A DNA stretch of 64,000 nt from an uncultured delta proteobacterium (GCA_963716725.1 CAVQUB010000012.1:32001-96000), one strand, 5' to 3'; numbered from the stretch's first letter, positions 19,378-36,184 are shown. A program made the numbers and translations. Notes: generated by a model from the sequence alone, not told the origin.

Positions 19378-19475
19378 CCCTCACCGCACCCGACGCGCTT
19401 CGTGACGATCCTTGAAAGTGCCCGGAGGGGCATCCCCGGCGGGGGGAACCCAAGTCCCCGGTCCCCGATCGTCGC
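19378..19475 (-). repeat. Copy of the extreme 3' end of the L,D-transpeptidase gene carrying a 54-bp nested insertion
   Basis: Matches 38944-38987 except for the insertion at 19392-19445. Confidence 0.9.
19392..19445 (+). repeat. Two nested 27-bp micro-elements (type A at 19407-19433 inside a type B)
   Basis: GACGCGCTTCGTGAC[GATCCTTGAAAGTGCCCGGAGGGGCAT]CCCCGGCGGGGG; absent from the homologous sites at 35409 and 38946. Confidence 0.88.
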
Positions 19476-19583: not shown

Positions 19584-19673
19584 CGGTTCAGGACGCGAGG
19601 CCCCCGAGCTGACTCCCCGAGCCCGAGCCTTCGCCTTCGACGTTCCCACCCGGAGGGAGTAAACTTCCCGGTG

Positions 19674-21695: not shown

Positions 21696-21696
21696 C

Positions 21697-21840: not shown

Positions 21841-21871
21841 CGCACCCGTCCGTAGCCAAAACGAATGGGGT

Positions 21872-22066: not shown

Positions 22067-22098
22067 TCTTCCTGCCCCAACTCGCCGGTGCTCCTCGC

Positions 22099-22125
22099 AC
22101 CCCTTCGAGTATCGCGAAGCGCGTC
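22099..22125 (-). repeat. 27-bp micro-element, type B
   Basis: GACGCGCTTCGCGATACTCGAAGGGGT. Confidence 0.75.
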
Positions 22126-22371
22126 GCTTCGCGCTCGTGCGCGCCTGCGGTCTTCCCCTAAGCTCGGGCTTCGCCCGAGCGGGGAAGACGGGTCGCTCCG
22201 AGCCAGGTGTGTCGTCGCTGAGCTTACGCGCGGCTCGTGGTGCTCGGCCGGCGCAGTGGTCGGGCTGCGCCGGGAGAGAGCGCGCGCCCCTGGGTGGCGA
22301 TCGCCACCTGACTTCGCCACTTCGCCGCCTGCGGGCGAACGAGTTCTCAGGGAAATTGCGGCTCTGCTGCG

Positions 22372-22386
22372 TGGCACGGGACTCGC
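22372..22386 (+). promoter_or_regulatory. Possible sigma-54 -24/-12 motif upstream of the IS91-like transposase
   Basis: TGGCAC-GGGAC-TCGC (GG-N10-GC). Confidence 0.35.
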
Positions 22387-22401
22387 TCATGCATCCGTGG
22401 C

Positions 22402-24111
22402 GTGGGCCATCCCGCACACGCGCTCGCACCGTCCGAGCGATCGCGTTCCCGCCATCGACCGGAGAGCACCGTGCTCTACCAGACGGTGGCGGAGCACTGG
22501 CCGGCGTTCTTGGAGCGGGCCGAAGAGCACGGCGGCTTGCCGCGCTTCACCCCGTCGGGTGTCACGCAGCGCGTCGTGGTGAAGGAGTTCGAGGAGTATT
22601 TAGGGTGTGGACAGCTCGAGCGAGGTTGTCTGCACCTCGTGTGTCGTGACTGCGGTTACTCCGACCTCGTGGCGTTTTCGTGCAAAAAGCGCGGCTTTTG
22701 CCCATCTTGTGTCGGGCGACGCATGGCGGACATGGCCGTGCATTTGGAGGAGCGAGTTCTGCCCCGTGTGCGGATCCGCCATTGGATTTGCTCCTTGCCC
22801 TGGGGGCTGCGTGCGCTGCTCGGCTACGACCCTTGGAAGTCCCAGAAGTGGGACGACCGGAAGCTCTGCGCAGAAGTGGTCAGCGCGTTCATGGCGGAGG
22901 TGGACCGCTCGCTGCGCAGGCGCGCGAAGCGCGAGCTCGGAATCGCAAGCGTCACGAGAGCATACACCGGCGGCGTGGTCGCGGTGCAGAGGACGGACGG
23001 TGCTTTGAGACTGAACGTCCACGGCCACGCTCTCGTGCTCGACCGCGTGTACGTGCATCAGGACGACGACCCGAGCGCTCCGCTCGAGTTCCGCGAGCTC
23101 GACACGCCATCGCACGCCGACATCGCGGAGGTCGCGTCACGCACGGCGACACGCATCGAGAAGATCCTGCGCGCGCACGGACGGAGCCTCGACCCCGAGC
23201 TCGGGGACGACACGCCGCCCGAGCTCGCCCTCGACGAGCCCGGCCTCGCAGCTTGCTACTCCGCCGCGGCGCAGGGCATCCCCCGTCGGGGACTTCCAGG
23301 GGTCGTCTCCGTGACCGGCGAACGAGCAGGAAAACCACCGCTCCGTCTCATCGCGTCGCCCGAATCGCCCGCGCGCCCGCGCGCCGCCGACGCCACCGAC
23401 GAGCCCATCGCCGAGGTGCGCGGCATCAACATTCACGCCGCCCAAGCCATCGACGGCCGCGATCGCCGTCGCGTGGAGCGAATCTGTAAGTACGACCCTT
23501 GGAAGTCCCCGACGGGGGACATCACGCGCCCACCTGTCGCGCAGGACCGCCTCGAGCGCCGCGCGGATGGCAAACTCGAGCTCAGCTTCAAGCGTGCTTG
23601 GCGTGACGACCCTTGGAAGTCCCCGACGGGGGGCGGCACACGCGCGCTGGTCTTCGAGCCCGCCGACCTCATCCCGCGCCTCGTCGCCGCGGTGCCGCCG
23701 CCTCGCTGGCATCTCCTCAGGTACTTCGGCGTGCTCTCCCTCTTCAGGGACTTCCAAGGGTCGTCGAGCCACTCCTCGCGCCGGCGTCTCGTCGTGCCCA
23801 CACCGCCGGCGGACGCGACCGCGAACAAGCCGCCGCCAGCCCGCGGCGATCAGCTCGAGCTACTTGGCGAGAAGGACGACGCGCCGGTGCCGCGCAAACG
23901 ATGGGCATGGATGCTGGCCCACGTGTTCCAAGCTGACATGGACCATTGTCCCCGCTGCTCCGGTCCGATGCGCTGGGCCGAGGTCGCCACGACGCGTGCT
24001 GCCATCACCCGCCTGCTCGCCGAGCACGGTCTCGGGGCGAGAGCGCCGCCGCGTCAACACGTGAACCTTCGGGTGCCCGAGCAGCTCGTGTTGGGGTTCG
24101 GGGAAGGGTGA
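22402..24111 (+). CDS. IS91/ISCR-family rolling-circle HUH transposase with six in-frame 9-aa insertions
   Basis: Zn motifs CRDCG..FSCKKRGFCPSC; HUH LNVHGH; ICKY..ITRPP; RYFGV. Confidence 0.93.
   Translation: MGHPAHALAPSERSRSRHRPESTVLYQTVAEHWPAFLERAEEHGGLPRFTPSGVTQRVVVKEFEEYLGCGQLERGCLHLVCRDCGYSDLVAFSCKKRGFCPSCVGRRMADMAVHLEERVLPRVRIRHWICSLPWGLRALLGYDPWKSQKWDDRKLCAEVVSAFMAEVDRSLRRRAKRELGIASVTRAYTGGVVAVQRTDGALRLNVHGHALVLDRVYVHQDDDPSAPLEFRELDTPSHADIAEVASRTATRIEKILRAHGRSLDPELGDDTPPELALDEPGLAACYSAAAQGIPRRGLPGVVSVTGERAGKPPLRLIASPESPARPRAADATDEPIAEVRGINIHAAQAIDGRDRRRVERICKYDPWKSPTGDITRPPVAQDRLERRADGKLELSFKRAWRDDPWKSPTGGGTRALVFEPADLIPRLVAAVPPPRWHLLRYFGVLSLFRDFQGSSSHSSRRRLVVPTPPADATANKPPPARGDQLELLGEKDDAPVPRKRWAWMLAHVFQADMDHCPRCSGPMRWAEVATTRAAITRLLAEHGLGARAPPRQHVNLRVPEQLVLGFGEG
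22549..22575 (-). repeat. 27-bp micro-element, type B (in-frame TPSGVTQRV)
   Basis: GACGCGCTGCGTGACACCCGACGGGGT; removal gives LPRFVVKEF. Confidence 0.85.
22828..22854 (+). repeat. 27-bp micro-element, type A (DPWKSQKWD)
   Basis: GACCCTTGGAA-GTCCCA-GAAG-TGGGAC. Confidence 0.9.
23278..23304 (-). repeat. 27-bp micro-element, type A
   Basis: GACCCCTGGAA-GTCCCC-GACG-GGGGAT on the minus strand. Confidence 0.9.
23494..23520 (+). repeat. 27-bp micro-element, type A (DPWKSPTGD)
   Basis: GACCCTTGGAA-GTCCCC-GACG-GGGGAC between KY and ITRPP. Confidence 0.92.
23608..23634 (+). repeat. 27-bp micro-element, type A (DPWKSPTGG)
   Basis: GACCCTTGGAA-GTCCCC-GACG-GGGGGC; removal gives WRDGTRAL. Confidence 0.92.
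23736..23762 (-). repeat. 27-bp micro-element, type A
   Basis: GACCCTTGGAA-GTCCCT-GAAG-AGGGAG; empty site in the paralog near 35735. Confidence 0.9.
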
Positions 24112-24258
24112 GGCTTCGTCGCGGGACTCGCCAAGGCGGTGCTCCGTGCGCGGTGGCGCGTTCTGCCTCGCTGTGACGCTCAGCAGCGGCAACCAACTGT
24201 TCAGCCAGCCACCCCGACCTGCCTCTCGACCTCCGACCGCCACGCGCGTACCCTGAGC

Positions 24259-24294
24259 ATCGGTGGGTTTTGGCAGTTCGTTCCTCCTACGCGC
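24259..24294 (+). mobile_element. Putative oriIS-like right end of the IS91 element
   Basis: CGGTGGGTTTTGGCAGTTCGTT..CCTACGCGC shared with 36136-36170; homology stops here. Confidence 0.6.
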
Positions 24295-24469
24295 GCCTCC
24301 CGCCTCGGCGACGGACCCGCCCGACGCATCCCAGCAGGGGGTTTCGAAACCGCCACCGCGCCGCGAGCCGAAGAGTCCTGCATCGGCTTCCGCGGCGAGC
24401 TCCCTGGGCATTCACGCCGACGGCCTGCTCGACCGCAAATGAGAGGTGCTAGCGTCTGGGGCAGCTCCG

Positions 24470-25573
24470 ATGAGCCGATCGCCCCTAGCCCAGCGACCAC
24501 TGACGCTGGCCCTCGCGGCCGCCGTGATGCTCCTGCCGCGTTTGGCGCGTGCCGAGCCGAGTGACGCAGACCGTCGCCAAGCCCAGGCGCTGTTCGAGCA
24601 AGGGCGGGTGTTGCTCGCGGAGCAGCGCTACGCCGAAGCCTGCCCCGCTTTCGCCGAGAGCCAGCGACTCGACCCCGGAGGCGGGACGCTCTTGAACCTG
24701 GCCGTCTGCCACGAGAAGCAGGGCCGACTGGCCACGGCCTACGCCGAGTACCAAGACGCGCTCAGCGCGGCTCGGGCCGACAGGCGCCAGGATCGTGCGC
24801 GGATCGCCACGCTGCGCCTCGAGGCGCTCGAGGGCAAGATCGCCCGCGTGCGCTTCGAGGTCGCCTCGGCGGCGGACGGCGCTTCCATCACGATCGAGCT
24901 CGACGGAACGAAAGTCCCCGAGCTTGCCTGGTCGACGCCCACACCAATCGACCCCGGTGTGCATCGCATCGTCGTGAGCGCGCCAGGCCACCGGAGCTGG
25001 CAGTCCCAGCTCGACGTCGCGACGGATGGCGGCGAGAGGGTCGTTTCGGTGCCCCGCCTCGAGGCGGTCGAAAGCCGAGGGGAGGCCCCAAAGCCGGTTG
25101 CTCCGCGTGCGCCGGCGCCGGCGGCGTGTCCGGCGGGCGGGCGAAGCGTCGGAGGTCGCTGCGTAGAGGCGCCCAGTGTCGATCGGGGCACAGAGGAGCG
25201 TCGTTTCGCTACAGCGTCCTGGGTGCTCGGCGGCGTGGGTGTGACTGCGCTCGGGGTCTCAGCGGTGACCGGCGCGATGGCGCTTTCGGCGAGCTCCGCC
25301 TCGGAAGATGCCAAGCGCCGTGCGGGCTGCGTGTCCGAGCGCCAGTTCTGTCGCGACTCGTCCGCTCTCGCTGAGTACCGCGATGACGCCGAGCGGGCGC
25401 GCTCGCTCGCCTGGATCAGTACCGGCGCGCTGGTCGCTGGCAGCGGCGCGGTCGTCGCCGCATGGCTTTGGCCGCGGGAGCACGTTTCGCGTCCGGTCGC
25501 CTCGATAGCCCTCACCCCGAGCCCGGGCCCCGGCTCGCTTTTTGTGTCCCTCCAAGGTCCCTGGTCAAACTGA
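24470..25573 (+). CDS. Secreted TPR + PEGA-like membrane protein
   Basis: AQALFEQGR..ACPAFAESQRLDP..TLLNLAVCHE; C-terminal TM helices. Confidence 0.85.
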   Translation: MSRSPLAQRPLTLALAAAVMLLPRLARAEPSDADRRQAQALFEQGRVLLAEQRYAEACPAFAESQRLDPGGGTLLNLAVCHEKQGRLATAYAEYQDALSAARADRRQDRARIATLRLEALEGKIARVRFEVASAADGASITIELDGTKVPELAWSTPTPIDPGVHRIVVSAPGHRSWQSQLDVATDGGERVVSVPRLEAVESRGEAPKPVAPRAPAPAACPAGGRSVGGRCVEAPSVDRGTEERRFATASWVLGGVGVTALGVSAVTGAMALSASSASEDAKRRAGCVSERQFCRDSSALAEYRDDAERARSLAWISTGALVAGSGAVVAAWLWPREHVSRPVASIALTPSPGPGSLFVSLQGPWSN

Positions 25574-25597
25574 AGAGCTGTCCAAGAATTGACCCCC

Positions 25598-25676
25598 CCG
25601 CATCCGCACCCGAAGAGCCCGACCGTGAGCACCCTCGACCCAAGCCGAGTTTCGGGTGCGGGTGCGGGTGCGCCGC
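25598..25676. terminator. Inverted repeat downstream of the TPR gene
   Basis: CGCATCCGCACCCGAA ... TTCGGGTGCGGGTGCG. Confidence 0.35.
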
Positions 25677-26019
25677 AAGGCGGCCAGTTCACACCCGGGC
25701 CAGTTGTCGGGACGAGTGCCCTGGTTCGCCGATTCCTGCTTGACCGATCGGAGTGGTGGGTCGAGGCGGAAGGCAAACCGGCGCGGGCGCGGTGCTCACG
25801 CGGCTTGAGCGCGCTGGTTTGGCGCGAAAACTGGGGCCTTCTCTCCCGAGCTGGAGTCGCTGTCAGGATGGAGGCTGCGACGGCGACGATTGCCCCTTTG
25901 GGCCCGCGCCCGCTCTTGAGGCGAAGGAACTGCGCGTGTAGGTACGTGTTCTTTGAGCGAGCCGCGGACCAAGCGGCCTGGACGAGCGTGGTCTTGAGCC
26001 AGGGAGCGCCCCTGCGCTG

Positions 26020-26436
26020 CTAAAGAGCCGGAAAGCATCGCATCTCAGTCATGATGCTCAGCCAGGTTCCGCACGAACAAACCTGGTCGTTGTTTGGGTC
26101 GAAACCGCAACTGGGCGGAGCGTACGTCACCTCTCGGCATTGCTCTCCGGCTTCGCATTCCGCGCTGGTGGAACATTTGGCTCGATAGCAGCCGAACTCG
26201 TCGAAGACGGACGCGGGATCTCCACAGTTGAAGTTCTCCTTTTCGCACATGTCTTGTACGCATGCGATGGGAAGGTTCGGAAGGCAGTCGGGACGGCCAG
26301 TCGCGCCGTCCCCGGACTGGCCCGCGCCGCCCCCACTGCCCGCAAGGGCCGAGCCTCCGCTGTCGGACTTGTCGCTAAAACACGCGACCAGACCTCCTGC
26401 CCCGAGCATCAGTACAACCGCAAAAAGGTGCTTCAT
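26020..26436 (-). CDS. Cys-rich lipoprotein
   Basis: MKHLFAVVLMLGAGGLVAC lipobox. Confidence 0.7.
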   Translation of the reverse strand: MKHLFAVVLMLGAGGLVACFSDKSDSGGSALAGSGGGAGQSGDGATGRPDCLPNLPIACVQDMCEKENFNCGDPASVFDEFGCYRAKCSTSAECEAGEQCREVTYAPPSCGFDPNNDQVCSCGTWLSIMTEMRCFPAL

Positions 26437-26446
26437 TTTCCTTCTC

Positions 26447-27556
26447 CTATCGTGACACAAGAGCGTGAATGCGCGCGACAAAGCTCACCACGCGGATCCG
26501 ATGGCGCCATGGTCGCAACAACCACCGCCCACCGCGTCGGCGTACGAAGCCAGCCCCAACTGCAGCTATGATCCATGGTTGCCACCAACCAGCTGCGGCA
26601 CCAACGGCCGACGCCGAGCATTGGGGTTGCGGTTTCGGGGACACCGTGCACGCGACCGACCAGTCGCCCGATGGATCGCTGCCCTCCTTTGACCCTCCCG
26701 CAAGCGCGAGTGCAGCCCGAATCGCGTCGGCTGATTCGGCCCTCTCAATTCCGTGCCCGGATCCGGTCGCCTCGACCGAGCACGTAGCCAGCGGCACCAA
26801 GTCCTCCGCACCAACAGAAAGCACGCCAACGAGATCCCCGGTCGCGTCCAACACAGGCCCGCCGCTTGCCCCAATCGCGACGTCCGCGGCCAAGCTCACG
26901 CCCGACGACGTGGTCGTCGTGACGGTCGCCTCGGGGTCGCACCGAATCGGAGCTCCGAAGCTAGCGCCGCACGCGATGAGCCGTTCTCCGGGCTTTGGCG
27001 ACAGTTCCGCGAGTCCGGCGAATGCGGCCAACGGTCGATCGATCTCGATTAGCGCGAGATCGGCGGCGGAACAGTCGTGGTAACGACGGAACAACACCCT
27101 CTGGCACCTGAAGACGCTGTCGGCCGGAACGTCCGACTGCCACGAATCCCAGAGGAAACCCCGAACAAGCAGCAGCCGGTCGCACTGTTCTTGGTCCGCA
27201 ACACAGTGGGCAGCCGTCGCGACGACGTTCGCGGCGACGGCCACACCGGTGCACACTGCAGCCGCTGGAAGCTGACCACCTGGCTCGGACGAGCACAGGT
27301 CGAAAACCTCGGCAGCCATCGGCGCGGAAATCGTGAAGGAGCCGGACCGGCTCTGGGTCGTGAAACTCACCGGGACCACAGCAAGGGTGCTGTTCACCAG
27401 AACCGCCTGCGCTGCCTGGCTTTCCAACGCGGAAGGCGCGACTCGTGAGTCGTGGCCGTACACGACGGGCGAGTCGACGCGGCCGTACGGCAGGTCGCCG
27501 GCCTCCGCAGAGCAAGCGTTTGTCGCCACAGCGATCAGCGGCACGAATCCTCTCAC
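26447..27556 (-). CDS. Trypsin-like serine protease with C-terminal hydrophobic tail
   Basis: TAAHCV, DLALIEI, GASGGP; GTG start overlaps the upstream stop. Confidence 0.85.
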   Translation of the reverse strand: MRGFVPLIAVATNACSAEAGDLPYGRVDSPVVYGHDSRVAPSALESQAAQAVLVNSTLAVVPVSFTTQSRSGSFTISAPMAAEVFDLCSSEPGGQLPAAAVCTGVAVAANVVATAAHCVADQEQCDRLLLVRGFLWDSWQSDVPADSVFRCQRVLFRRYHDCSAADLALIEIDRPLAAFAGLAELSPKPGERLIACGASFGAPIRCDPEATVTTTTSSGVSLAADVAIGASGGPVLDATGDLVGVLSVGAEDLVPLATCSVEATGSGHGIERAESADAIRAALALAGGSKEGSDPSGDWSVACTVSPKPQPQCSASAVGAAAGWWQPWIIAAVGAGFVRRRGGRWLLRPWRHRIRVVSFVARIHALVSR

Positions 27557-28788
27557 GGGTAGGTCGCCCGAAGATTGCTCATCAGGTTGAAGATGTAGCT
27601 GTCCAACCGCTTCTCCAGGTTTGGGTTCGCTCTGATGGTGGCGCTTGGCTCTTGGGCGACCGTGCACGTCGTGCAACGTTGAACCGAGGCCACTGCGAAG
27701 ATGTGGAAGCTTCCGAGCCCGGTCGTGTACATGCCCGACCCTGAATGCCCGGGGCCGTTGTCGCACCCGTGCGAGAATGTGGAGTTGAACCCGTTTCCGA
27801 ACGGGAACATGAACTGACCGAAGCTGCATCCGGAGGTCTGGCCGTACAGCCGCTCGGCCTGGCAGTTAGCCGGCGAGTTCACTTGGCCACAGCCGGGATA
27901 TCCAACCTCACGCTTGGTCCAATTCTGGATGTCGGCTTGGCCAAGCCACGCGTAACCAAGCCAGCCGGGGTGCCCCTGGGGGAAGTTGTCTTGCAGCAGC
28001 AGGAGCGCCCAGTCCTCGGGGACGCAGTCCGACCAATACCCTGGAGCGCCGCCGGTGCACTTGGAGATGTAGTTGCCACCCCACCACGCGGCGACCACAG
28101 CCTGTTGACCGAATGGGAGCGACGCGCCGTTCACGGCCGGCTGAAAGGTCCCCGCAGCGTAGTTGCCGCCCGGGTCTATCACGCAGTGCGCTGCGGTGAT
28201 GATCAGGCGTCTCCCGAAGAAGGTCGCCGTGCAACCGCCGTTGGCCAACAACCTCCCGACCGTTCGGTATTCCCAGTTCTGGAAGCCAGACAGATTCACT
28301 CGGTTGTCGATGCCGTTCCCCGACGAGACTGCGCTGGACCATCCCTTCTCTTGCAGCGGAACCTGATCGGGTTGCACTGGTTCAGCGATGCCTCTGGGCA
28401 CGAGCTCCGCGGCGAGATCCGCCAGCTTCTTGCTGTCGTAACGGAGAGTCTGCACCTCTGGCTTCGACGCTTCGAGATAGGCCACGAGCTGATGGTCCTC
28501 GGGGGGTGAGCTGGCTTCCATCTTCGAAGGGTCCGAGGCCCACGCCGCGCTCGCCATGATCCCCGTTTGCGTCGGCTTGATGGAGATCGCCGCGGTACCA
28601 ACGACCGTCGGCGCAACCGGGGCAACACCCCCCACGAGTGCTTGCTGGTGCTCGTAGCTGGTCCGCGACCGCTCGGCGACGGAGGGGCTCGGCTCTCCGC
28701 CGCAGCCCGCTGGGCCCGTCATCAGCGCGAGACTGGTCGCCGACATTCCGAGGGCTGAGCCGACCAGAAATCGAAGTCTGTTTGTCAT
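27553..28788 (-). CDS. Trypsin-like (V8-type) serine protease lipoprotein
   Basis: PAGC lipobox; ITAAHCV, DWALLLL, GHSGSG. Confidence 0.88.
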   Translation of the reverse strand: MTNRLRFLVGSALGMSATSLALMTGPAGCGGEPSPSVAERSRTSYEHQQALVGGVAPVAPTVVGTAAISIKPTQTGIMASAAWASDPSKMEASSPPEDHQLVAYLEASKPEVQTLRYDSKKLADLAAELVPRGIAEPVQPDQVPLQEKGWSSAVSSGNGIDNRVNLSGFQNWEYRTVGRLLANGGCTATFFGRRLIITAAHCVIDPGGNYAAGTFQPAVNGASLPFGQQAVVAAWWGGNYISKCTGGAPGYWSDCVPEDWALLLLQDNFPQGHPGWLGYAWLGQADIQNWTKREVGYPGCGQVNSPANCQAERLYGQTSGCSFGQFMFPFGNGFNSTFSHGCDNGPGHSGSGMYTTGLGSFHIFAVASVQRCTTCTVAQEPSATIRANPNLEKRLDSYIFNLMSNLRATYP

Positions 28789-28926
28789 TGCTTGTTCCCC
28801 GTCCCGGCCAAATTGGATGGACTGATTGCTCACTCTGCCCTCCTTGCCGGGCGAACGCGCGTAATTCCCGCGTAATTTTCTCCTCCCGCGTGGCGCACGC
28901 CGGCCCCTCACTCTACCCTTGAGTTC

Positions 28927-29709
28927 GTGAGGAGGGTTTCGGGCGAGCATGCGGTCCAAGTCTCGGCTGCGCCGCGCCTCGCCGCGCTCGACGCGATGCC
29001 CCGTTCGCATGATGTCGCCGTTGCGGTCCGAGCGGCGATGTCGGGCAGCATGTTTATTGTCGAAGACTCAACGGACGCGATGCTGCCGCAGGCACAGATC
29101 GTGGTCATCGCGGACCGGTGCGGCGAGTGGGCTTGCGAGCGCATCGCGCACTTCCAGCGCCTCGACTTCGTGGGGCCGGTGGTCGTCGTCGTGGACGAGT
29201 TCCGCGAGCAGATCGCAGTGCTCGGGTACGGCTGCGGTGCTCTCGCGTGGGAGGCGCTACCTCTGCGCGCAACCGCCTTTGTCGCCCAGCTCGATGCGCT
29301 GGCGAGCCGGCTCATCGGTTGCCCAGACCCGCCCGACGTGGCCGTGCGACTCGTCCCCTCCACTTTCTCGGCGGTCATCGACGAGGAAGTGGTGAAATTC
29401 AAGCCAAGGGCGTTCGCCGTCTTTGCCTACCTGCTGGGCCGGCGGGAGATTTGGACCACTCCGCGGAGAGTCATGCAGGATGTCTTCGAGACCAACCACT
29501 CGTCCGACTCTTCGGTTGTCCGCATGCAAATCAGGAACATTCGTGCTGCGCTTGGTCCAAAGCTCGCCTGGATCCTCGCCGGAGCAGAAGGCCGCGGCTA
29601 CCAAGTCACTCTGAGTTGGGACTCGACGGCGGGGCGCCGACTGTCACCCCATCCGCGGTACCGGGGTCCAAGCGGGGGCGCATCGCCAAGGACGTCACGC
29701 GTGCGCTGA
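28927..29709 (+). CDS. Winged-helix (OmpR C-terminal type) transcriptional regulator
   Basis: PRAFAVFAYL..VVRMQIRNIRAALG..GRGY. Confidence 0.7.
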   Translation: MRRVSGEHAVQVSAAPRLAALDAMPRSHDVAVAVRAAMSGSMFIVEDSTDAMLPQAQIVVIADRCGEWACERIAHFQRLDFVGPVVVVVDEFREQIAVLGYGCGALAWEALPLRATAFVAQLDALASRLIGCPDPPDVAVRLVPSTFSAVIDEEVVKFKPRAFAVFAYLLGRREIWTTPRRVMQDVFETNHSSDSSVVRMQIRNIRAALGPKLAWILAGAEGRGYQVTLSWDSTAGRRLSPHPRYRGPSGGASPRTSRVR

Positions 29710-29903
29710 TCGCGCGTGAGCTGGTGAAGCTCCTGTACTGCGCCGACGTGGACGCGTAGCCGTGGAGCGGTTCGTCTCGCGATATTGGCGTAGGAGCGCC
29801 GCCGCGTGAGCGGCGGCGCTCCGCATCGAGTCCGGGTCGGGACAGAGTCCGCGCCGGCGGCGATCTCATTGAAAGCCCGGAGGAGGTCGGGCACGTCGAA
29901 TGT

Positions 29904-30596
29904 ATGAGTACAACAACCCCGCCGATCGACCATCGATCGCCTCCTCCGGAAGCCCATCCATGCCTCCGCCGGGCCTACGCGTCCAGGGTGCCGGAGCAGA
30001 AGGGCGGTACGCTGATCGCCGGGAGCGTGGTGGACCTCGAGACGCACGAGCGCCTGCTAAGAATTGACGGCTACCGCCCGGCCGTTTGTCAGCGGTGCGG
30101 TGGCCCAGTGCACGCCCACGAGCACCGTGCCCGGCTGCTGCTCGGGGAAGCTGAGGGCAGCACCGACATCGCGATCTATCGCTGTGCCGACCACGAAAGC
30201 TGCGGCGCGGTGTGGCGTGTACTGCCAGGGTTGCTAGCCCGCCACCTGTGGCGGGCCTGGAGCACGGTCGAACGTACGATTGCCGATCGTGATGGCGAAG
30301 AGCGGGTCGTGGCGGGGCCGGTCGGCGCGGTTGGGCCACCAATTCCGGAGAGGACCCGCGTGCGCTGGCGCACCCGGCTCGTCACGTCGGCCGCGATGGT
30401 GGTCGCGGTACTGGCTACCGCGATGGACGTACCTGCTCTCGCTTACGTCGTGAAGCGAACTGGCTATCTGGCAACGCGCGGGGAGGTCGTCACGGTCTTC
30501 GCCGAAAACAGCCGGTCAGCGCCCGGCTGCGGTCATCTGCTCGGTGCGTTGGCCGCCGTCGTCCACAGGCTCGCACCGGGAGTGCGTCTCATGTAA
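29904..30596 (+). CDS. ORF1 of a second three-gene transposon (CxxC/His motifs)
   Basis: CQRCGGPVHAH..YRCAD..CGAVWRVLP, upstream of a DDE transposase. Confidence 0.7.
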   Translation: MSTTTPPIDHRSPPPEAHPCLRRAYASRVPEQKGGTLIAGSVVDLETHERLLRIDGYRPAVCQRCGGPVHAHEHRARLLLGEAEGSTDIAIYRCADHESCGAVWRVLPGLLARHLWRAWSTVERTIADRDGEERVVAGPVGAVGPPIPERTRVRWRTRLVTSAAMVVAVLATAMDVPALAYVVKRTGYLATRGEVVTVFAENSRSAPGCGHLLGALAAVVHRLAPGVRLM

Positions 30597-30688
30597 CGGC
30601 CGGTGAGCACCGCGCGTCGGGACGCGTGGCAGCACGGCGTCATCGAATCCCACCCAAAGTGGCGAAGGCCTCGAGATAGCGGTGGGGC

Positions 30689-32089
30689 ATGGACGAGGAG
30701 GCCCGCCACCGCATCGCGCTCTGGCGCTTCGGCGTGCTCGGCCCGCTGGTGAGCGCCCGACTCGAGCATGGCGATCGCCGCGCGTGGTTTCGCGCTGCGT
30801 CCGCGCGCGTGCACGAGCACCCGAACGGACGCCTGGTGCGGCTGAGTGCCCGCACGATCGAGGGCTGGTACCTGGCATATCGCAAAGGCGGGCTTCGGTC
30901 GCTCGAGCCCGGAACGCGCGCCGACTGCGGCCAGAGCCGAGCGATCTCGGCCGAAGTCGCGGACCTGCTTTTGCGCGCGAAGCGAGAGAAACCGCGCCGC
31001 TCGATTCGGCGCCTGATTCGCATGCTGGAGCGCGCCGGCGCCGCACGCGAAGGCGAGCTCAGTCGCTCGAGCGTGCACCGCCTGCTCGCGAGCCAGGGCA
31101 TCTCGGCTCGCCCCACGCGGGGGCCGGGCGCCGAACGGCGCTCCTTCATTACCGAGCATGCCGGCGATCTGTGCATTGGTGATGCGCTGTACGGCCCGCT
31201 CGTGCTCGCGACCGGCGGCCGGCTGAAGAAGACGATCCTGTTTTCGGAGCTCGACTGCGCAACCCGCTACGTGATCGAGAGCCGCTTCGTCATCGCTCGA
31301 GGTGAGCGCCCCGAAGACCACGAGCTCGGGCTCAAGAACGCGCTGCTCAAGGCCGGGCTCTTTCGGACCTACTACGTCGACCGGGGCCCCGCCTGCCGGG
31401 CCGGCTCGCTCAGGGCCATCACCGCCGAGCTCGGCATCCGCCTGCTCTTGACCGGCGCCGGCGACGCCGCGGCCAAGGGGGCGATCGAGAGATTCAACCG
31501 CACCTGGCGCGAGGAGGTCGGCGACGAGCTCGGGGGCGGCGTGCTCACGCTCGCCGAGCTCAATGCGTATCACTGGGCTTGGCTCGAGCAGGAGTACCAC
31601 GCGCGAAAGCACGACACGACCGGCAGATCCCCTCGCGAGCACTGGCTCGCGGAGGTCGCGGCCGGTTACGTGCGTCCGTTGCCTCGCGACATCGATCTCG
31701 ACGTCGTGTTTCTGCATCGCGCCACGCGCCACGTGCGCCAGGACGGCGTGGTCTCGTTTCGCGGACAGCTGCTCGAGGTGCGCGCCGAGCTCAGCGGCCA
31801 GAGGGTCGAGCTGCGCTTCGACCCGCACCAGCCCGCCGCGTTGCCGCAGGTGTACGTCGCCGGCCGCTTCTTCTGCGACACCGTGCCGCTCGACCGGCTC
31901 AGGAACGCGACGCGCCGTCGCCGCCGCGACCTTGGTGTCCCGGAGCCCCTGACGAGGCCGAGTGGCATCGATCCGCTCGCACTCATCGCGCGCGACCACT
32001 ACGCGCGCACGCGCGCCGGCCTGCCGCCGGACGCAGCCTTCCGTCAACTACTCGACGACACCGACGACAACAACAACGAGGAGAAGTGA
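30689..32089 (+). CDS. DDE transposase/integrase with Mu-like C-terminus
   Basis: IALWRFGVLG, IGDALYG, LDCATR, YVDRG, KGAIERF; same layout as 6208-7653. Confidence 0.9.
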   Translation: MDEEARHRIALWRFGVLGPLVSARLEHGDRRAWFRAASARVHEHPNGRLVRLSARTIEGWYLAYRKGGLRSLEPGTRADCGQSRAISAEVADLLLRAKREKPRRSIRRLIRMLERAGAAREGELSRSSVHRLLASQGISARPTRGPGAERRSFITEHAGDLCIGDALYGPLVLATGGRLKKTILFSELDCATRYVIESRFVIARGERPEDHELGLKNALLKAGLFRTYYVDRGPACRAGSLRAITAELGIRLLLTGAGDAAAKGAIERFNRTWREEVGDELGGGVLTLAELNAYHWAWLEQEYHARKHDTTGRSPREHWLAEVAAGYVRPLPRDIDLDVVFLHRATRHVRQDGVVSFRGQLLEVRAELSGQRVELRFDPHQPAALPQVYVAGRFFCDTVPLDRLRNATRRRRRDLGVPEPLTRPSGIDPLALIARDHYARTRAGLPPDAAFRQLLDDTDDNNNEEK

Positions 32090-32090
32090 C

Positions 32091-32595
32091 ATGTATCGCA
32101 AACGATTTGGTCTGACGGGCCATCCGCTGCCCAAGAATGCCCAAGGCAAGACCTTTTACGACGACAGCCCGCCGTACCGCAGGCTCGAGCGAGCCTTCCG
32201 GCAACTGGTCGACGAGCCCGGCGTGGGTCTCATCACCGGCGAGCCCGGTGTCGGCAAGACGGCAGCGCTCAGAAACCTGTGCGCGACGCTGCCCAAGCCC
32301 GACAACTTGGTGCTCTACCTCTGCGACACCGCCGTTTCGCCGCTCGACCTCTATCGCACGTTGGCGCAGGAGCTCGGCGTCGCGCCGTCCCACCGCCGCG
32401 GCCAGCTCTGGACCGACATCAAGAAGGTCCTCGTGCACCTGGTCGACGAGCGACACACCCAGCCGCTCCTCGTGCTCGACGAGGCGCAGCACCTGAGCGA
32501 CAAGTTTCTGCTCGACCTCTCCGGTTTTCTCAACTTCGCCTTCGACAGCCGCGAGCTCTTGACCTTGTGGCTGGTGGGACTGCCGGCACTCGGTC
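32091..32595 (+). pseudogene. ExeA-family ATPase, 3' truncated
   Basis: MYRKRFGLTGHP, GEPGVGKT, LVLDEAQ; switches to IS3-like sequence. Confidence 0.85.
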
Positions 32596-32596
32596 G

Positions 32597-32785
32597 CACG
32601 CCGCTCGCGATGAGCGCCCTCGATCGAGCGACCTCGGCGAGAACCCCGGCAGTCGGCATGGTCCACCACTCGGACCGGGGCAGCGTCTACGCCAGCGGCG
32701 ACTACGGCGACGCGCTGGAGAAGCTGGGAGCCGTGAAGAGCATGAGCAGGAAGGGGGACTGCTGGGACAACGCGGTCGCCGAGCC
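32597..32785 (+). mobile_element. IS3-family transposase core fragment
   Basis: HHSDRGSVYAS..SMSRKGDCWDNAVAE. Confidence 0.85.
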
Positions 32786-32979
32786 GGCTTTGTGGTGCCT
32801 GAATGGCCTAGGGCGCAGATTGGGATTCGAAGAGGAAGTGGAGGCGAAGTCTTGCTCACGCGGGCTCACCAGGACCGCCCGTGGGCTGCCGTCCTGGGGG
32901 CAACAGGTTTGTCGCGCTCATCCACCACCGACTTTGCCGCTCTGCTACACGCGCTCGCGGCGCCAAATCTTGTGGGAGG

Positions 32980-33201
32980 TTAGCTCGCTATCGGCACCTC
33001 CGTAGTTCGTGTCGTTTGCGATTTGGGACGACGAATTTTCGCCGCCGCACGCTCCAGTGCCTTCGCGCGATACTCCAGATCTTGTGCGGCTTGGCGCAAA
33101 CCGCGTGCGCCGCTGCGAGCGACACGCTCCGGCTCATAAACCGTATCGTCGCGCCACATCGCCCAAAGTACGCCGGCCAAGCGCCGCGCCAGGGCGATCA
33201 C
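32980..33201 (-). mobile_element. IS110-family transposase C-terminal fragment
   Basis: IALARRLAGVLWAMWRDDTVY. Confidence 0.7.
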
Positions 33202-33217
33202 GGCGACTCGCTTCCCC

Positions 33218-33355
33218 GACCGCCGCGTCGCGGACGCCCGCCGCGAGCGCGCGCTTTGGCGGCTCGGCTACCGGGTGCTCCGGCTCGAGTCCGACCTCGT
33301 GCTCGGTGCGCCCGAGGAAGCGGTGGCGCGGGTGCGCGCGGCGCTCGCAGGCTAG
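33218..33355 (+). pseudogene. DUF559 endonuclease, C-terminal half
   Basis: DRRVADARRERALWRLGYRVLRL..EEAVARVRAAL*. Confidence 0.75.
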
Positions 33356-33533
33356 GGAACCTCTCTTTCTGGCCCAACTCCCTCGCCAGGGGAAGGCGGG
33401 TGTTCCGAGACCGGGACGCCGGCGCTTGCGGCTGCGTCGTTGCAGAATGCCGTCCAGCGCGTTCATCTGGCTCCGCACCTTGCCAACGTCGACAGCCCGC
33501 AGTCGAGGTCGCCGGCTTCGGCAAGGTGCTAGG

Positions 33534-33944
33534 ATGAGGATCGAGATGACGACCGTGTCGTTGCAGGGATCCGCCGAAGCCCCGGTGCGGGGCGCCTTCC
33601 GTGCGGCCCGGGATGCACACGACCGGGACATCGACCTGAAGCCGATTCAACCTCTGCTCGACCGCATCGTTGCGCTCTGGCGACCTGAGCGCATCTGGTT
33701 GTTCGGGAGCCGCGCGCGCGGCGAAGCACAGGCGGGGAGCGATTGGGATCTCTTTGCTGTCGTGCCCGACGACGTGCCGGACGACCAACTCGAACCGGCC
33801 ATCAGCTGGAGGCTCCGGAAGGAATCGCGAACGCGAGCCGACGTGGTGCCCTGCCATTCCTCGGACTTCCGCGAGGCCCGGGACACGCCGAACACCATGG
33901 CGTACGAAGTCGCGCGGGGGGGCGTGATTCTGTATGAGCGCTGA
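33534..33944 (+). CDS. Minimal nucleotidyltransferase (MNT antitoxin)
   Basis: WLFGSRARG..SDWDL. Confidence 0.88.
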   Translation: MRIEMTTVSLQGSAEAPVRGAFRAARDAHDRDIDLKPIQPLLDRIVALWRPERIWLFGSRARGEAQAGSDWDLFAVVPDDVPDDQLEPAISWRLRKESRTRADVVPCHSSDFREARDTPNTMAYEVARGGVILYER

Positions 33945-34374
33945 CGTGGTGATCGCGAACTTCTTGAGGATCGCGAGCCAGGATCTCGAAGGCGCGAAGA
34001 TCCTCGCGGAAGCGAACAATCGAAACGCCGTGTATCTGTGCGAGCAAGCGGCTGAGAAGATCATCCGAGCAGTTCTCACCTCGGAGGGGCAGCATGCGGG
34101 CATCAAGCACTTGCTCGACGAAATGGTGGAAGCAGTCCCCGATGCGAACCCAATCAAGCCGCTTCTGGAGGGGATCGAGCACCTCGCGGCATTTGCCACG
34201 ACGTATCGCTATCCGAGCCCCGCCGGGAGAATCAAGGCGCCGCCTGCCGCAGCCGATCTGACCAAGCATCTGGCCGACGTCGAGGCCGCGTTGACTGAAG
34301 TAGTGAAGCGCTTCGGTGTTGATCTATCGAAGCCGAACGAACCGGCGGCGAACTCTGTACCGATACGAGACTGA
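33934..34374 (+). CDS. HEPN-domain protein
   Basis: A..DLEGA..YLCEQAAEKII..KHLL..RYP; overlaps the MNT gene. Confidence 0.85.
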   Translation: MSADVVIANFLRIASQDLEGAKILAEANNRNAVYLCEQAAEKIIRAVLTSEGQHAGIKHLLDEMVEAVPDANPIKPLLEGIEHLAAFATTYRYPSPAGRIKAPPAAADLTKHLADVEAALTEVVKRFGVDLSKPNEPAANSVPIRD

Positions 34375-34530
34375 CGAGCCGCGAGAGAGGCTCTGTGCGA
34401 TGTCCATCGCACGCCTGTTCCGGTGGGACGAGCGGACCTGTCGTGCCTCGGCCCGGCGCAGCGGTCGACGAAGCGCCCGGAGTGCCTCGGCGGCGCGGTG
34501 GTCGGGCCCCGCTCGTCAGCGCACGCTCTG

Positions 34531-34569
34531 CGCCCTGGGTCGCGAAGCCCGCCCACCACGCCGGGCCTC
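34531..34569 (+). repeat. 39-bp exact repeat (other copy 38629-38667)
   Basis: CGCCCTGGGTCGCGAAGCCCGCCCACCACGCCGGGCCTC. Confidence 0.9.
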
Positions 34570-34852
34570 TCTTCCTGCCCCCACTCGCCTCGCTGCGCTC
34601 GGCGGTCTCCCCCAACGCCGGTGCGCGCGGGCGGTGGCGCTTTGCTCAGACCGGAGCGCGGGTGGCGCATGCCCCCGCGCACGCGGCGGGGGGAGACGCG
34701 CGTTTGGGCGTGTCGGTGGCCGTGCTGGGGGGAGCGGAGTCGACGGTGTTGCCGGCGCGCACACTCCCGTGTCGTGACTCGATACCACCGCGGCCCTTTC
34801 CCTGGCGTTTGGGTGACCTACCGAATGGCTCAACGCATGCAAGTGGCGCTGC

Positions 34853-35380
34853 ATGTCCTTGTCTCGGGTCGGAACCGTCCGCGCCGCGGTGGTCCTCGCC
34901 ATGTCTCCGGTGGCGGCGCTGCTCGCTTGCGACGTGGGAGACCTGGACTTCCAGTTGTTCAGCGGCGCTGACGGGGGCTCGGGTGAGTCCGGGTGGTTCA
35001 AAGGGGAGTGCAAGACCGACCAGCACTGCGAGGCGGGGCAGTGCTGTGTGCACTTTCTCGGCGGGTCGTGCGAAGACTTGGTTTGGACCAGTTCGACGCA
35101 GCCCATCTGTTTCAACTCTGGGGACGATCACGACGGGCTTTGCGCCTGTTTCCCGCCCCAGGCCCAGCCGATGTGCCCACCGGCGATACTCGAGCCCCCG
35201 GTGAAGCCCGAGTGCGCGCCCCGCCCTTACGTGAAGTGCGCGATGCTCTGCCCCGAGCAGGTCTGCGCGTGTTCCACGCAAGAGCTGGATCTATCTGACG
35301 TTGGAGTCGAAGTGCCGAGCTGTCCCCCGTCGGACTGGTCGATTACGTGCCCAAGCGCAGACGGCGGAGTCGCCGATTGA
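34853..35380 (+). CDS. Cys-rich putative lipoprotein, copy 2
   Basis: Near-identical to 12704-13231. Confidence 0.75.
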   Translation: MSLSRVGTVRAAVVLAMSPVAALLACDVGDLDFQLFSGADGGSGESGWFKGECKTDQHCEAGQCCVHFLGGSCEDLVWTSSTQPICFNSGDDHDGLCACFPPQAQPMCPPAILEPPVKPECAPRPYVKCAMLCPEQVCACSTQELDLSDVGVEVPSCPPSDWSITCPSADGGVAD

Positions 35381-35391
35381 CGAGGCGCTTC

Positions 35392-35603
35392 GCGCGAGCC
35401 CGCCACCCTCACCGCACCCGAACCCAAGTCCCCGGTCCCCGATCGTCGCCGCTGCGCACGCTGTGCCACGCATCGGGCACCTGGGGCTCCGTCCACGAAA
35501 ACAGCCACTTCGCGTCGCGGACCGAGAGGTTGACGCAGCCGCCGCTCTTCGGCTCACCGAAGCGATCGTGCCAGTAGGCCGCATGCAAGGCGAAGGGCAT
35601 GTG
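35392..35603 (-). repeat. Apparently exact 212-bp copy of the LDT 3' end and flank (38929-39140)
   Basis: Direct comparison by eye found no mismatch. Confidence 0.92.
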
Positions 35604-36170
35604 TCTTCCTGCCCCAACTCGCCGCCGCTGCACTCCTTCGAGTATCGCGAAGCGCGTCGCGGCGTCGGTCTTCCCCAAACTCGGGCTTTGCCCGAGCGGG
35701 GAAGACGGGCGTGGGTTCCGAGGTACTTCGGCGTCCTTTCGAGGCACTCGTCGCGCCGCCGACTCGTCGTGCCTGCTCCCCCGCCCGACGCGACCGCGCA
35801 CAAGCCCCCGCCCGCCCGCGGCGATCAGCTTGAGCTGCTCGGCGAGACAGACGACGCACCCGCTCCGCGAGCCCCTTGGGGATCCCCGAAGGGGGACAAA
35901 CGACGGGCCTGGCTCCTGGCGCATGTGTTGACCACGCGAAGGTGCGCCTGCCCGAGCAGTTGGTGCTGGGGTTCGGGAAGGAGTGAGGCAGGCGCCAAGC
36001 GCCTCGCCGAGCGCGAACGTGTGTCCTCTGCAGCGCGCGACGCCGAAAATCCTGCCGCGCTCTACCTTTGCGGGGCCCCGAGCGGGTTCACGGGCCAGCC
36101 CTCGACCGCGCGCATGCCTGCGCGTACTGTTCGACTCGGTGGGTTTTGGCAGTTCGTTTTCCCTACGCGC
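35604..36170 (+). mobile_element. Internally deleted IS91-like element, with 27-bp elements at 35632-35658 (B) and 35871-35897 (A)
   Basis: Same left flank as 22067; [29 protein letters not shown]; same right end as 24259-24294. Confidence 0.88.
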
Positions 36171-36184
36171 CCGTCGTCCTGAGC

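Follow-up and report, generated by a model that had tools for sequence, protein, structure and literature searches.

The IS91-like gene and its insertions

The window, that is, the whole 64-kb stretch of DNA analysed here, comes from a myxobacterial genome and carries an IS91-like transposase gene, a C-terminal fragment of such a gene, and a set of 27-nt hairpin units in both orientations (Table 1). A first-pass annotation had listed 11 units of 27 bp, and all of them were recovered to within one base of register, although two, placed at 19392 and 19407, are parts of one nested composite. Coordinates are given in the register consistent with all of the empty sites, CGACCC...GGGR with insertion after a purine, which replaces the earlier view that the units follow a C. 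Between 39 and 64 kb of the window no unit scored above chance, as had been said of the genes there.

Table 1. Units and IS91-like genes in the window.
Feature	Position	Strand	Remarks
Split type B	19393..19446	+	head 19393-19405, hairpin part 19433-19446, type A nested between
Type A, TTGAAAG subfamily	19406..19432	+	nested in B after ...CGTGA
Type B	22097..22123	-	upstream of IS91-like gene
IS91-like Y2 (HUH) transposase ORF P0001, 569 aa, with six in-frame 27-nt units	22402..24111	+	Pfam
Type B	22548..22574	-	in ORF, read TPSGVTQRV; absent in 17/17 aligned homologues and 4 paralogues
Type A	22827..22853	+	in ORF, read DPWKSQKWD
Type A	23279..23305	-	in ORF, read PRRGLPGVV; C5 paralogue empty at this site
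Type A	23493..23519	+	in ORF, read DPWKSPTGD; directly after invariant Tyr364 (CKY^ITRPP)
Type A	23607..23633	+	in ORF, read DPWKSPTGG
Type A	23737..23763	-	in ORF, read SLFRDFQGS; site empty in gene fragment near 35735
Type B	35631..35657	-	paralogous copy of the 22097 context
IS91-like gene, C-terminal fragment	35700..35990	+	empty at the 23737 site; filled at the site empty at 23895
Type A, diverged	35870..35896	+	head AGCCCCTTGGGGA, stem TCCCC/GGGGA; exactly 27 nt extra relative to window 23890-23900

The P0001 product matches the Pfam families Zn_Tnp_IS91 (3.4e-15) and Y2_Tnp (4.8e-08). Its homologues are about 490-526 aa long, and without the six inserts its length would be 569 - 54 = 515 aa, the usual one. 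Of the 17 homologues aligned, 16-17 lack any given 9-aa insert, and four paralogues from the same genome are empty at all six sites at the DNA level. Hence the units that had been noticed close to one transposase, keeping its frame open, are six exact in-frame insertions, and the outcome that would have spoken against the annotation, namely peptides shared by all homologous transposases, is not the one observed. The 23493 site is also filled in other IS91-like lineages (L078, L097/L098, L118), and the C13 copy has a different unit variant at the 22827 site.

In the window, the type A 16-mer with at most three mismatches gave 6 matches against 0.49 expected, a number reached in none of 100 shuffles; a loose type B 15-mer was weakly above chance (34 matches, 18.2 expected). 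The full type B pattern had 30 matches in the genome and none in the reversed control.

Architecture of the unit

Both types follow one common plan, in which a head of 13 nt precedes a hairpin with a 5-bp stem, its 3' arm lying beyond a G-rich loop of 4 nt. In the 83 aligned variants the head is CGACCCTKGGAAG in type A and ACGCGCTTCGYGA in type B, in place of the GTAG motif, which had correctly been said to be lacking. The stems covary, as first suggested by inspection: at the pair 18-23 we observed CG (n = 41), UA (n = 19), AU (n = 6) and GC (n = 4), and the covariation score was 0.257, compared with 0.132 +/- 0.010 in shuffles (0/500 as high) and at most 0.11 in slid controls. As judged from the aligned sequences, the hairpin is under selection, its GC-rich stem being kept by compensatory changes. 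Fold energies of the unit DNA range from -5.6 to -7.7 kcal/mol.

The type A consensus has no stop codon in any of the six frames, in agreement with the annotation, although in the TTGAAAG subfamily (e.g. the unit at 19406) one of the six contains a stop. Given a length divisible by three and a stop-free consensus, insertions into coding DNA survive as 9-residue loops. A search of 8.4 million texts for 14-mers of the unit gave two matches, both unrelated.

Mobility and insertion sites

In every empty/filled pair compared, the difference in length was exactly 27 nt. The reciprocal empty sites described earlier were confirmed, the one at 35735 for the 23737 unit and the one at 23895 for the 35870 unit. 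A contig from run X5, which belongs to another study, has 0 mismatches over 261 nt and yet lacks the 27 nt at 22827-22853, while in a contig from run X9 the same site is filled, also with 0 mismatches. Elsewhere, a single-copy FG-GAP gene encodes 9 residues more than three homologues in two congeners, and a type B unit within a 155-bp repeat is present in about 12 copies and missing from one.

Type A units occur in this genome singly, nested, in tandem arrays of 2-10 and within type B units; the A-in-B composite seen at 19393-19446 recurs at about 17 further loci. The units are arranged singly, nested or in direct tandem, and inverted doublets were not seen. The proposal that these are minimal non-autonomous mobile units is therefore upheld by the comparison of exactly filled and exactly empty sites in paralogues, in homologues and in a contig from an independent metagenome, by nesting and by tandem arrays, and the family is active or recently active.

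In 133 unique contexts, the base at position -1 of the insertion was A (n = 107) or G (n = 26), never C or T, and the base at -2 was G in 98. The -1 base tends to match base 27 of the unit (2 x 2 table 92, 13; 8, 17; odds ratio 15, p = 6e-8), and this match persisted in the 86 plain contexts (p = 9e-6). Insertion thus follows a purine, with CGR^C as the preferred target, and at most 1 nt (one purine) is apparently duplicated; the earlier remark on the lack of a clear duplication holds for anything longer. The target CGR^C resembles both the junction between tandem units and the sites adjoining resident hairpins.

Miniatures of the IS200/IS605 type (Y1 HUH) would be expected to insert 3' of a fixed short target without duplication; the units have the target CGR^C and no duplication above 1 nt, but their -1 base tracks base 27. 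An orientation bias tied to the replication fork, as expected of such miniatures, was not seen in the units: their orientation relative to the local GC skew (+/-25 kb) was 33:27 (p = 0.52), which is a weak test in a draft genome. Both orientations occur within 1.2 kb in one transposase gene. Together with the lack of a skew bias, this does not fit simple targeting of a single displaced strand.

Abundance and distribution

The genome contains about 110-125 type A units; at the threshold of at least 11/12 matches in the head and at least 4/6 stem pairs, we found 124, compared with 6 in the reversed genome. The IS91-like DNA holds 16 unique contexts in 22,071 bp, whereas other repeated DNA holds 6 in 306,605 bp, a 37-fold difference in density. 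Thus the concentration in IS91-like DNA that had been claimed is a strong enrichment, but the family itself is not local, being spread over the genome and across phyla. The same 27-mer with covarying stems is present in metagenome-assembled genomes (MAGs) labelled Myxococcota, Gammaproteobacteria, Bacillota, Fibrobacterota, Spirochaetota and Chloroflexota, and at the GTDB loci (n = 112) 107 of the 130 17-mer matches had at least 5/6 stem pairs. A Spirochaetota MAG carries 20 copies, a Fibrobacterota MAG 14, and four Myxococcota MAGs 67, 83, 35 and 22.

The units are, oddly, better conserved than their own flanks: shared units are 100% identical (108/108, 82/82, 82/82), even in site-specific quirks, and the flanks are 86-87% identical.

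A Y2_Tnp match is present in 13 of the 16 unit-bearing genomes and also in 22 of the 34 unit-free relatives; it was not found in the unit-bearing genomes G041 (20 units), G019 (5 units, 100% complete) and G044. Of the 35 units in congeners, 9 are about 2 kb or less from a Y2 match. Over 41 relatives, types A and B are distributed identically; one relative, G004, lacks both types and has a P0001-like Y2 gene.

Comparison with known repeats

The closest analogues seem to be the elements SDR1-8 of Nostoc punctiforme and its relatives, which are said to have been described by Elhai et al. in 2008, in volume 18 of Genome Res (page 1484), as 'very small mobile repeated elements'. The SDRs are hairpin-forming repeats of 21-27 nt, dispersed, and able to insert into each other and into genes. 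We know of no transposase assigned to them and of no established mechanism; nor, to our knowledge, have a CGR^C or 1-nt junction rule, a hot spot in an IS91-type transposase or long tandem self-arrays been reported for them. The units described here share with the SDRs, as we know these, the size, the hairpin, the dispersal, the nesting and the insertion into genes, and they show the same kind of evidence of mobility, in that copies are nested and that insertions are polymorphic between paralogues and between orthologues. The sequences are apparently different, the SDRs being compared by description only. Passages in PMC5861425, PMC13756078 and PMC3116915 support these SDR features; the passage in PMC13756078 gives the function of SDR5 as still not known, and that in PMC5861425 describes the SDRs as confined to Nostocaceae, whereas the units occur in Myxococcota and under at least five other phylum labels.

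The annotation had named REP/REPIN and Rickettsia elements as analogues and overlooked two kinds already described, the SDRs and the intragenic REPs. The latter belong, according to passages in Di Nocera et al. 2013 (PMC3733652), to the GTAG- and CGTC-tagged superfamilies. By the same passages, REPs resemble our units in being 20-40 nt long, in combining an unpaired conserved tag with a GC-rich hairpin, in having some in-frame genic copies and in being targeted by IS elements. The units differ in having a 13-nt head where the REP tags, as defined there, would be, and a stem of 5-6 bp with no CCA tail, the CGTC REPs having a stem of 8-9 bp that starts with AT (PMC3733652). The head-to-head dimers that form the REPIN inverted doublet, mostly extragenic, are not seen among the units, 33 of 110 of which lie within predicted coding frames. 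REPs and REPINs are associated with RAYTs, and no such association was found for the units in the present tests.

Rickettsia palindromic elements (RPEs) belong to a single lineage, and RPE-1 is about 100-150 bp long, whereas the units are 27 nt, nested, arrayed and cross-phylum. Both are palindromic and insert in frame into genes, the RPEs being described in a passage of PMC3733652 as selfish palindromic DNA in apparently functional genes.

A further term of comparison is the IS91/ISCR family with the eukaryotic Helitrons, Y2 HUH rolling-circle transposons that also have non-autonomous derivatives. Passages in PMC13181058 describe for the IS91 family the lack of a duplication, a target that resembles the sequence cleaved after a subterminal hairpin, and a functional single-stranded circle. 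The units likewise show no target duplication longer than 1 nt and, on their 5' side, a target that resembles the sequence at the cut beyond the hairpin. In the group as a whole the short target beside the 5' end is similar to what is cleaved beyond the subterminal 3' hairpin, the intermediates are single-stranded circles and tandem products are possible. However, these transposons are at least 1.5 kb long with two distinct ends, while here one 27-nt hairpin unit is the whole element; non-autonomous elements of the IS91 type would be expected to share their ends with an autonomous one, or to derive them from it, and the unit does not look like the right-hand terminus (...GGTGGGTTTTGGCAG) of the IS91-like copies.

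Discussion

We consider the units to be very small non-autonomous mobile repeats, similar to REPs and SDRs, that would move in single-stranded form through an HUH-type enzyme able to nick and join, and estimate the probability of this reading at about 60%. On this reading they form a further family within the little-understood class of 'very small mobile repeats'. The HUH chemistry, suggested by the logic of the junctions, is plausible. The enzyme would read the hairpin and cut R^C at both ends, and the GT at the hairpin foot could pair with either R^C junction. Multiplication may proceed through a 27-nt circle or rolling-circle copying, either of which would account for the units standing in tandem. 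Against this reading, simple HUH cut-and-paste does not predict that the -1 base should match base 27.

By association, the leading candidate for the mover is at present the Y2 transposase of the IS91 family, and some other enzyme is about equally likely. Tentatively, a dedicated or widely conserved host enzyme could move the units, the link to IS91 being indirect, with IS91-like genes as favoured targets and vehicles of horizontal spread. This would agree with a 13-nt head that is kept across phyla in which neither Y1 nor Y2 is consistent, with the joint distribution of types A and B, including their joint absence from G004, and with the SDRs, likewise without an assigned enzyme as far as we know. 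On the other hand, it leaves the excess over other repeated DNA unexplained, and also the repeated insertions at the same sites of IS91-like genes, unless these genes are a special substrate; no candidate for such an enzyme was found.

The complete identity of units amid diverged flanks is not explained by a purely selfish, decaying insert. Together with the site-specific quirks, the conservation of the head across phyla and the unit directly after the invariant tyrosine of the transposase, it might suggest functional modules under selection, e.g. hairpins that bind a protein, or RNA hairpins, holding transposase and Rhs genes in check. We regard this as quite improbable, as all six reading frames and both orientations are represented among the units, which occur also in non-coding DNA, nested and in variable arrays, and match none of the Rfam families; moreover, a function at resident sites would still require a means of spread.

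Movement as REP/REPIN-type repeats by a RAYT, an IS200-type Y1 HUH transposase, is very doubtful. It would account for the hairpin with a conserved single-stranded head and for the targeting of the units by an IS, as is known of REPs, and this genome, the richest in type A units among seven congeners, is the only one of them with Y1_Tnp matches (n = 2). But the units have neither the GTAG nor the CGTC tag, and are single or in direct tandem, never in inverted doublets. The suggested check for a RAYT or Y1 gene flanked by units was negative: no A or B unit lies within 1.5 kb of either of the two Y1 genes, and one of these genes sits between inverted repeats of its own, 66 nt long and with other hairpins. 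Among the 16 unit-bearing genomes Y1_Tnp is present in 5 and was not found in the other 11 (G001-G003, G005, G006, G019, G042, G046-G049), including those with 67 and 83 units; for a second Y1 type, 10 unit-bearing genomes gave no more than one weak match (E = 7e-4).

Since the species scan gave hairpin-bearing matches in MAGs only, one might suspect an artefact of assembly, adapters or binning; a further alternative is a peptide motif conserved in this protein family. Both are refuted for practical purposes by the comparisons with homologues and paralogues and by independent Logan contigs, from runs of four other studies, that span filled units with 0 mismatches, the more so as the variants covary, the in-frame junctions are clean and the contigs reach 1.4 Mb.

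A bolder version of the mobile-repeat reading, unlikely as a whole, is that the 27-nt hairpin is a complete cross-phylum transposable unit, a hyperparasite of IS91-type rolling-circle transposons. Here R^C would be cut and joined, with the GT at the hairpin foot guiding both ends, by the Y2 HUH transposase or another single-stranded DNA enzyme, and a 27-nt circle would give rise to the tandem arrays; the unit would land repeatedly in the transposase gene, including the site after the invariant tyrosine, and resident copies would be kept unchanged by selection.

Units in the transposase gene of the window

All 11 units placed in the window by the first-pass annotation were found at their assigned positions on reading the window sequence. 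Its statement that the units keep the transposase frame open also holds: the 569-aa IS91-like protein (Table) contains six blocks of exactly 9 residues, which are extra compared with 17 aligned homologues (TPSGVTQRV, DPWKSQKWD, PRRGLPGVV, DPWKSPTGD, DPWKSPTGG and SLFRDFQGS). In the same alignment, the HxH motif (RLNVHGHAL) and the family-invariant residues are undamaged. The length of the homologues is mostly 487-526 aa, and the protein without the six blocks has 569 - 54 = 515 aa. One homologue, P0006, carries 9-residue blocks of a similar kind at four other sites, KY^IT being the sole site in common, and another, P0007, has one such block at yet another site. At all six sites, the DNA of four paralogues in the source genome (G000; identity 77-80%) has no unit, and two closer copies (about 86%) have most of the units in common plus extra units of their own. 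An empty copy of the IS91-like transposase gene of G000 is situated at C13:127134-128681. Hence the peptides are not a shared feature of all homologous transposases, and, given the empty homologues and paralogues, the units of the window transposase are insertions. No sequence relatives of this transposase were found in PDB, so that a catalytic role of its Tyr364 is putative.

Parts of the window are contained in sequencing runs from nine studies, and contigs of four runs (four studies) were compared. A 261-nt contig from a wastewater run is identical to the window but for a gap of exactly 27 nt where the 22827 unit would be, and a 305-nt contig from a groundwater run covers the filled form with 0 differences. 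An artefact is opposed by the cover of filled units in runs of other studies. An FG-GAP repeat protein encoded by a single-copy chromosomal gene on contig C1 has 9 residues, DLGKSPTGD, following KLVAY, that three homologues from two congeneric genomes lack. Thus, the units are recently mobile and no artefact.

Coordinates of features in the window, in the source genome (G000) and in a Natronospirales MAG (G041)
Sequence	Position	Strand	Feature	Remarks
Window	22402-24111		IS91-like ORF	569 aa; domains Zn_Tnp_IS91 and Y2_Tnp
Window	19443-19475, 20088-20112, 21886-21915, 35421-35450		Motif CCCAAGTCCCCGGTCCCCGATCGTCGC	Edges of rearranged segments; adjoin fragments of a putative L,D-transpeptidase-like gene on the minus strand (identified from translation alone)
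Window	19480-19570		Short GC-rich tandem duplication, GGCGCATGCCCGCGCGCACGCGGCGGG	Two copies; directly upstream of the antitoxin-like ORF
Window	about 19674-19919		Small antitoxin-like ORF	Followed by a truncated partner ORF
G000, C5	604500-608600		3.5-kb repeated element (L007)	Codes for a 489-aa HNH-like protein and a frameshifted DDE transposase; 7 further copies (C2, C3, C4, C6, C13, C21, C33)
G000, C8	148800-150300		MITE-like repeat (L128)	155-180 bp, two hairpins, at about 149397-149576; about 18 other loci in G000
G000, C13	287800-290600		1.5-kb IS4-family element (L129)	At about 288522-289988; 469-aa ORF with Tnp_DNA_bind and DDE_Tnp_1; end CTCATGAT...
G000	C1:162397, C4:160292, C13:84032, C5:676864, C24:1779, C1:162241, C10:8825, C10:10343, C34:147323		Further IS4-family insertion sites
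G000, C5	164074-167409, ORF 1444-2037	-	Y1_Tnp (IS200-like) gene (L011)	197 aa; 66-nt inverted repeats either side, two hairpins each (CCCCGGGAT..ATCCCGGGG and AGCCCGCCCTTCGGGCGGGCT)
G000, C5	497987-501229, ORF 1111-2541	-	Second Y1_Tnp-like domain (L012)	HLHLI motif, at the end of the frame; first half a long run of 6-residue repeats (AQGSHS...), probably not coding
G041, C11	5000-23000		Cluster of Rhs/YD-repeat gene fragments (L125)	Type A unit near each start, frames differ

Hairpin structure and the insertion junction

The sole register fitting all type A empty sites is 5'-CGACCCTKGGAAGTCCCnnnnGGGGR-3', placed after a purine. Type B units form a separate family (30 uninterrupted copies by a strict pattern in G000 vs 0 in the reversed control) with several covarying hairpins and a length of 27 nt, set by three empty sites. 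Set in registers compatible with every empty site, the two types have the same geometry, with the head at positions 1-13, the stem at 14-18 and 23-27, and the loop at 19-22.

The stem covariation noticed in the first pass was borne out in a set of 83 distinct 28-mers, in which 15 chance matches were kept on purpose. The pair 18-23 is CG in 41, UA in 19, AU in 6 and GC in 4 of them, and the pair 15-26 is CG in 65, AU in 2 and GC in 2. The covariation score was 0.257 vs 0.132 +/- 0.010 for shuffled sets (none of 500 scored as high) and at most 0.11 for slid partners, columns 13-17 being fixed by the search pattern for the loci from the species scan. The predicted DNA fold is the hairpin itself, at -5.6 to -7.7 kcal/mol. 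A search of Rfam with window positions 19000-36500 yielded zero families at E <= 0.1.

The set of 133 unique contexts, taken from G000 and from other genomes, has A (n = 107) or G (n = 26) before the unit and never C or T; the second base before the unit is G in 98 contexts, and the base after it is C in 93. The base at -1 tends to be the same as the last base of the unit (A/A, 92/107; G/G, 17/26; odds ratio 15, p = 6e-8), and this tendency persists in the 86 contexts that are neither tandem nor nested (p = 9e-6). Because of this match, the insertion event looks like 26 nt plus one duplicated purine, with the target near CGR^C (R^C denotes a purine, the insertion point and a C). A CGR^C-like target is also present at the junction between two tandem units and within the GACG loop, where nested copies were seen in another genome.

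Abundance and arrangement in the source genome

The source genome comprises 7.89 Mb in 35 contigs (67.8% GC, 84% complete), the window being positions 32001-96000 of C12. A scan with three mismatches produced 1141 matches vs 857 in the control, that is, mostly noise, and was replaced by a score based on the 12-nt head and six stem pairs. Requiring 11 or more head matches and 4 or more pairs, we counted 124 sites in G000 vs 6 in the reversed genome; with 12 head matches and 6 pairs the counts were 62 vs 0. Of the 110 type A units retained, 36 follow another unit in a tandem array. By their flanks, the type A units fall into 54 distinct contexts: 32 in single-copy DNA, 16 in IS91-like DNA and 6 in other repeated DNA. 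Type A units are frequently nested in type B units (following ...CGYGA) and in other type A units; one nine-unit array, together with nested units, lies inside a type B unit.

Units are also found in other repeats. The 5' non-coding part of the 3.5-kb element (8 copies in G000) contains arrays of 2-7 identical type A units, and their number varies among copies that are 98% identical. Most copies of the MITE-like repeat have a type B unit, one copy (C6:120197) being empty. The IS4-family element has repeatedly inserted within the 3' arm of both A and B hairpins. Some type B units have a 9-nt internal duplication that is footprint-like in look.

Concentration in IS91-like DNA

IS91-like DNA accounts for 22,071 bp, or 0.28% of G000, and contains 23 of the 110 type A units. 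The density of unique contexts is 0.72 per kb there vs 0.020 in other repeated and 0.004 in single-copy DNA, in agreement with the concentration claimed in the first pass; the 16 IS91-like contexts include diverged copies of one event, and we estimate 9-11 independent events. In the congeners, 9 of 35 units are within about 2 kb of a Y2_Tnp match (the IS91-type HUH transposase domain). Several IS91-like lineages carry a unit directly behind the invariant Tyr (CKY^I/V-T/L-RPP), and the 22827 site holds different unit variants in two G000 copies. Tolerance of junk DNA does not by itself explain the IS91 pattern.

The three IS91-like copies with units in common agree at every unit position (108/108, 82/82 and 82/82), site-specific quirks included, and their coding flanks are only 86-87% identical. 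Identical units in diverged flanks suggest constraint at the nucleotide level, conversion or site-directed renewal.

Distribution in other genomes

The exact type A 16-mer was found in 7 of 41 relatives: in G000 itself (77 copies), in five of six congeners (3-13 copies each) and in one other genus of the family. The spread of type B over the same relatives is nearly the same, G004 having neither. A genus-restricted family, our first reading of these 41 genomes, was overturned by a scan with one genome per species, which gave at least 112 loci. Among the matches listed, 107 of 130 have a hairpin with at least 5 of 6 pairs; the hairpin-bearing records are all MAGs, and the matches in isolates have no hairpin. 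The record labels are Myxococcales, Polyangiaceae, Kofleriaceae, Gammaproteobacteria, Bacillota, Fibrobacterota, Natronospirales and Anaerolineales. By our own estimate, 596 Gb should contain about 140 chance 17-mers, which is consistent with the roughly 23 hairpin-less matches among those listed.

By the 16-nt pattern, four Myxococcota MAGs have 67, 83, 35 and 22 copies, the 2.6-Mb Natronospirales MAG (G041) has 20 and a Fibrobacterota MAG 14. The units of G041 (55% GC) occupy Rhs/YD-repeat genes, where they stand in three different frames and empty paralogous sites exist. The sole match in viral contigs has no hairpin and is therefore ascribed to chance. PLSDB plasmids gave 0 matches to a two-unit query at E <= 1, to which the low-complexity filter may contribute.

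Candidate enzymes

For the search of candidate movers we used 16 unit-bearing genomes, G050 being counted as G001 because the match coordinates are identical. Five of the 16 gave matches to Y1_Tnp (the IS200/RAYT type); the six congeners besides G000 and the four high-copy Myxococcota MAGs gave none, negatives that are limited by MAG incompleteness. The second Y1 type was not found in 10 other unit-bearing genomes, bar a weak match (E = 7e-4). No A, B or GTAG repeats were found near the two G000 Y1 genes. A RAYT link was rejected, as the Y1 genes are unflanked by units and sporadic across unit-bearing genomes. One of the G000 Y1 genes is bounded by its own inverted repeats, in a layout like that of a TIR-associated tyrosine transposase, with no relation to the A and B units.

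Y2_Tnp is present in 13 of the 16 unit-bearing genomes, but 22 of 34 relatives without units have it too; G041 (20 units), G019 and G044 gave no match, a negative limited by MAG incompleteness. Neither Y1 nor Y2 presence is a clean correlate of the units, and the data thus establish neither family as necessary or sufficient.

According to passages of PMC13181058, IS91-family elements create no duplication and employ a functional circle of single-stranded DNA, and their target is similar to the sequence at which cleavage occurs behind a subterminal palindrome. In their junction logic, the units are like HUH rolling-circle elements; in the reading proposed here, both unit junctions are R^C, and GT at the hairpin foot could pair with either. 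A simple version of such movement is opposed by both unit orientations inside one gene, by an orientation without bias relative to GC skew (33:27 in the draft G000), and by the -1/27 base match, which plain cut-and-paste does not predict. Of the first-pass annotation, the observation stands, and the interpretation as minimal non-autonomous single-stranded elements mobilised by an HUH enzyme is partly supported.

Relation to known repeats and significance

'Small dispersed repeats' of 21-27 nt were reportedly described in Nostoc by Elhai et al. in 2008; compared by description only, they are the closest kind to the 27-nt units. One of them, SDR5, has 21 nt and is restricted to a few heterocystous cyanobacteria, and its function is called unknown in passages of later papers. 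REPs inside genes, and the superfamilies tagged GTAG and CGTC, are already described (PMC3733652); the 27-nt unit has neither tag, nor the stem and tail typical of them. G000 contains, separately, a classical REP family of the GTAG type, with GGGTAGACC and a CTCCGCGCGTGCGGAG hairpin in about 113 copies, which is the commonest non-simple repeat of the genome (example 13-mers, GGTAGACCTCCGC and CTCCGCGCGTGCG). In the literature accessible without subscription, a search that included the 14-mers of the unit found no description of the family. We conclude that the 27-nt units form a new, cross-phylum family of a known kind whose mechanism is unsolved, marked by a clear junction rule and by an unusual concentration in HUH transposase genes.

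Very small hairpin repeats such as REPs, SDRs and RPEs are common, and how the smallest of them move is a decades-old question. The present family offers several handles on the mechanism: a fixed 27-nt unit; filled and empty polymorphism with identical flanks; a sharp junction rule, with a purine (usually CGR^C) before the first C and the last base of the unit equal to that purine; a strong hot spot in a single enzyme family, whose members are single-strand nucleases; and one and the same head sequence in distant phyla. With such handles, oligonucleotides and a few purified proteins would suffice for a direct test of the mechanism. The units matter for annotation as well, since they give proteins 9-residue loops or long DPWKS-type repeats that could be mistaken for protein motifs, split the Pfam matches of transposases and break assemblies.
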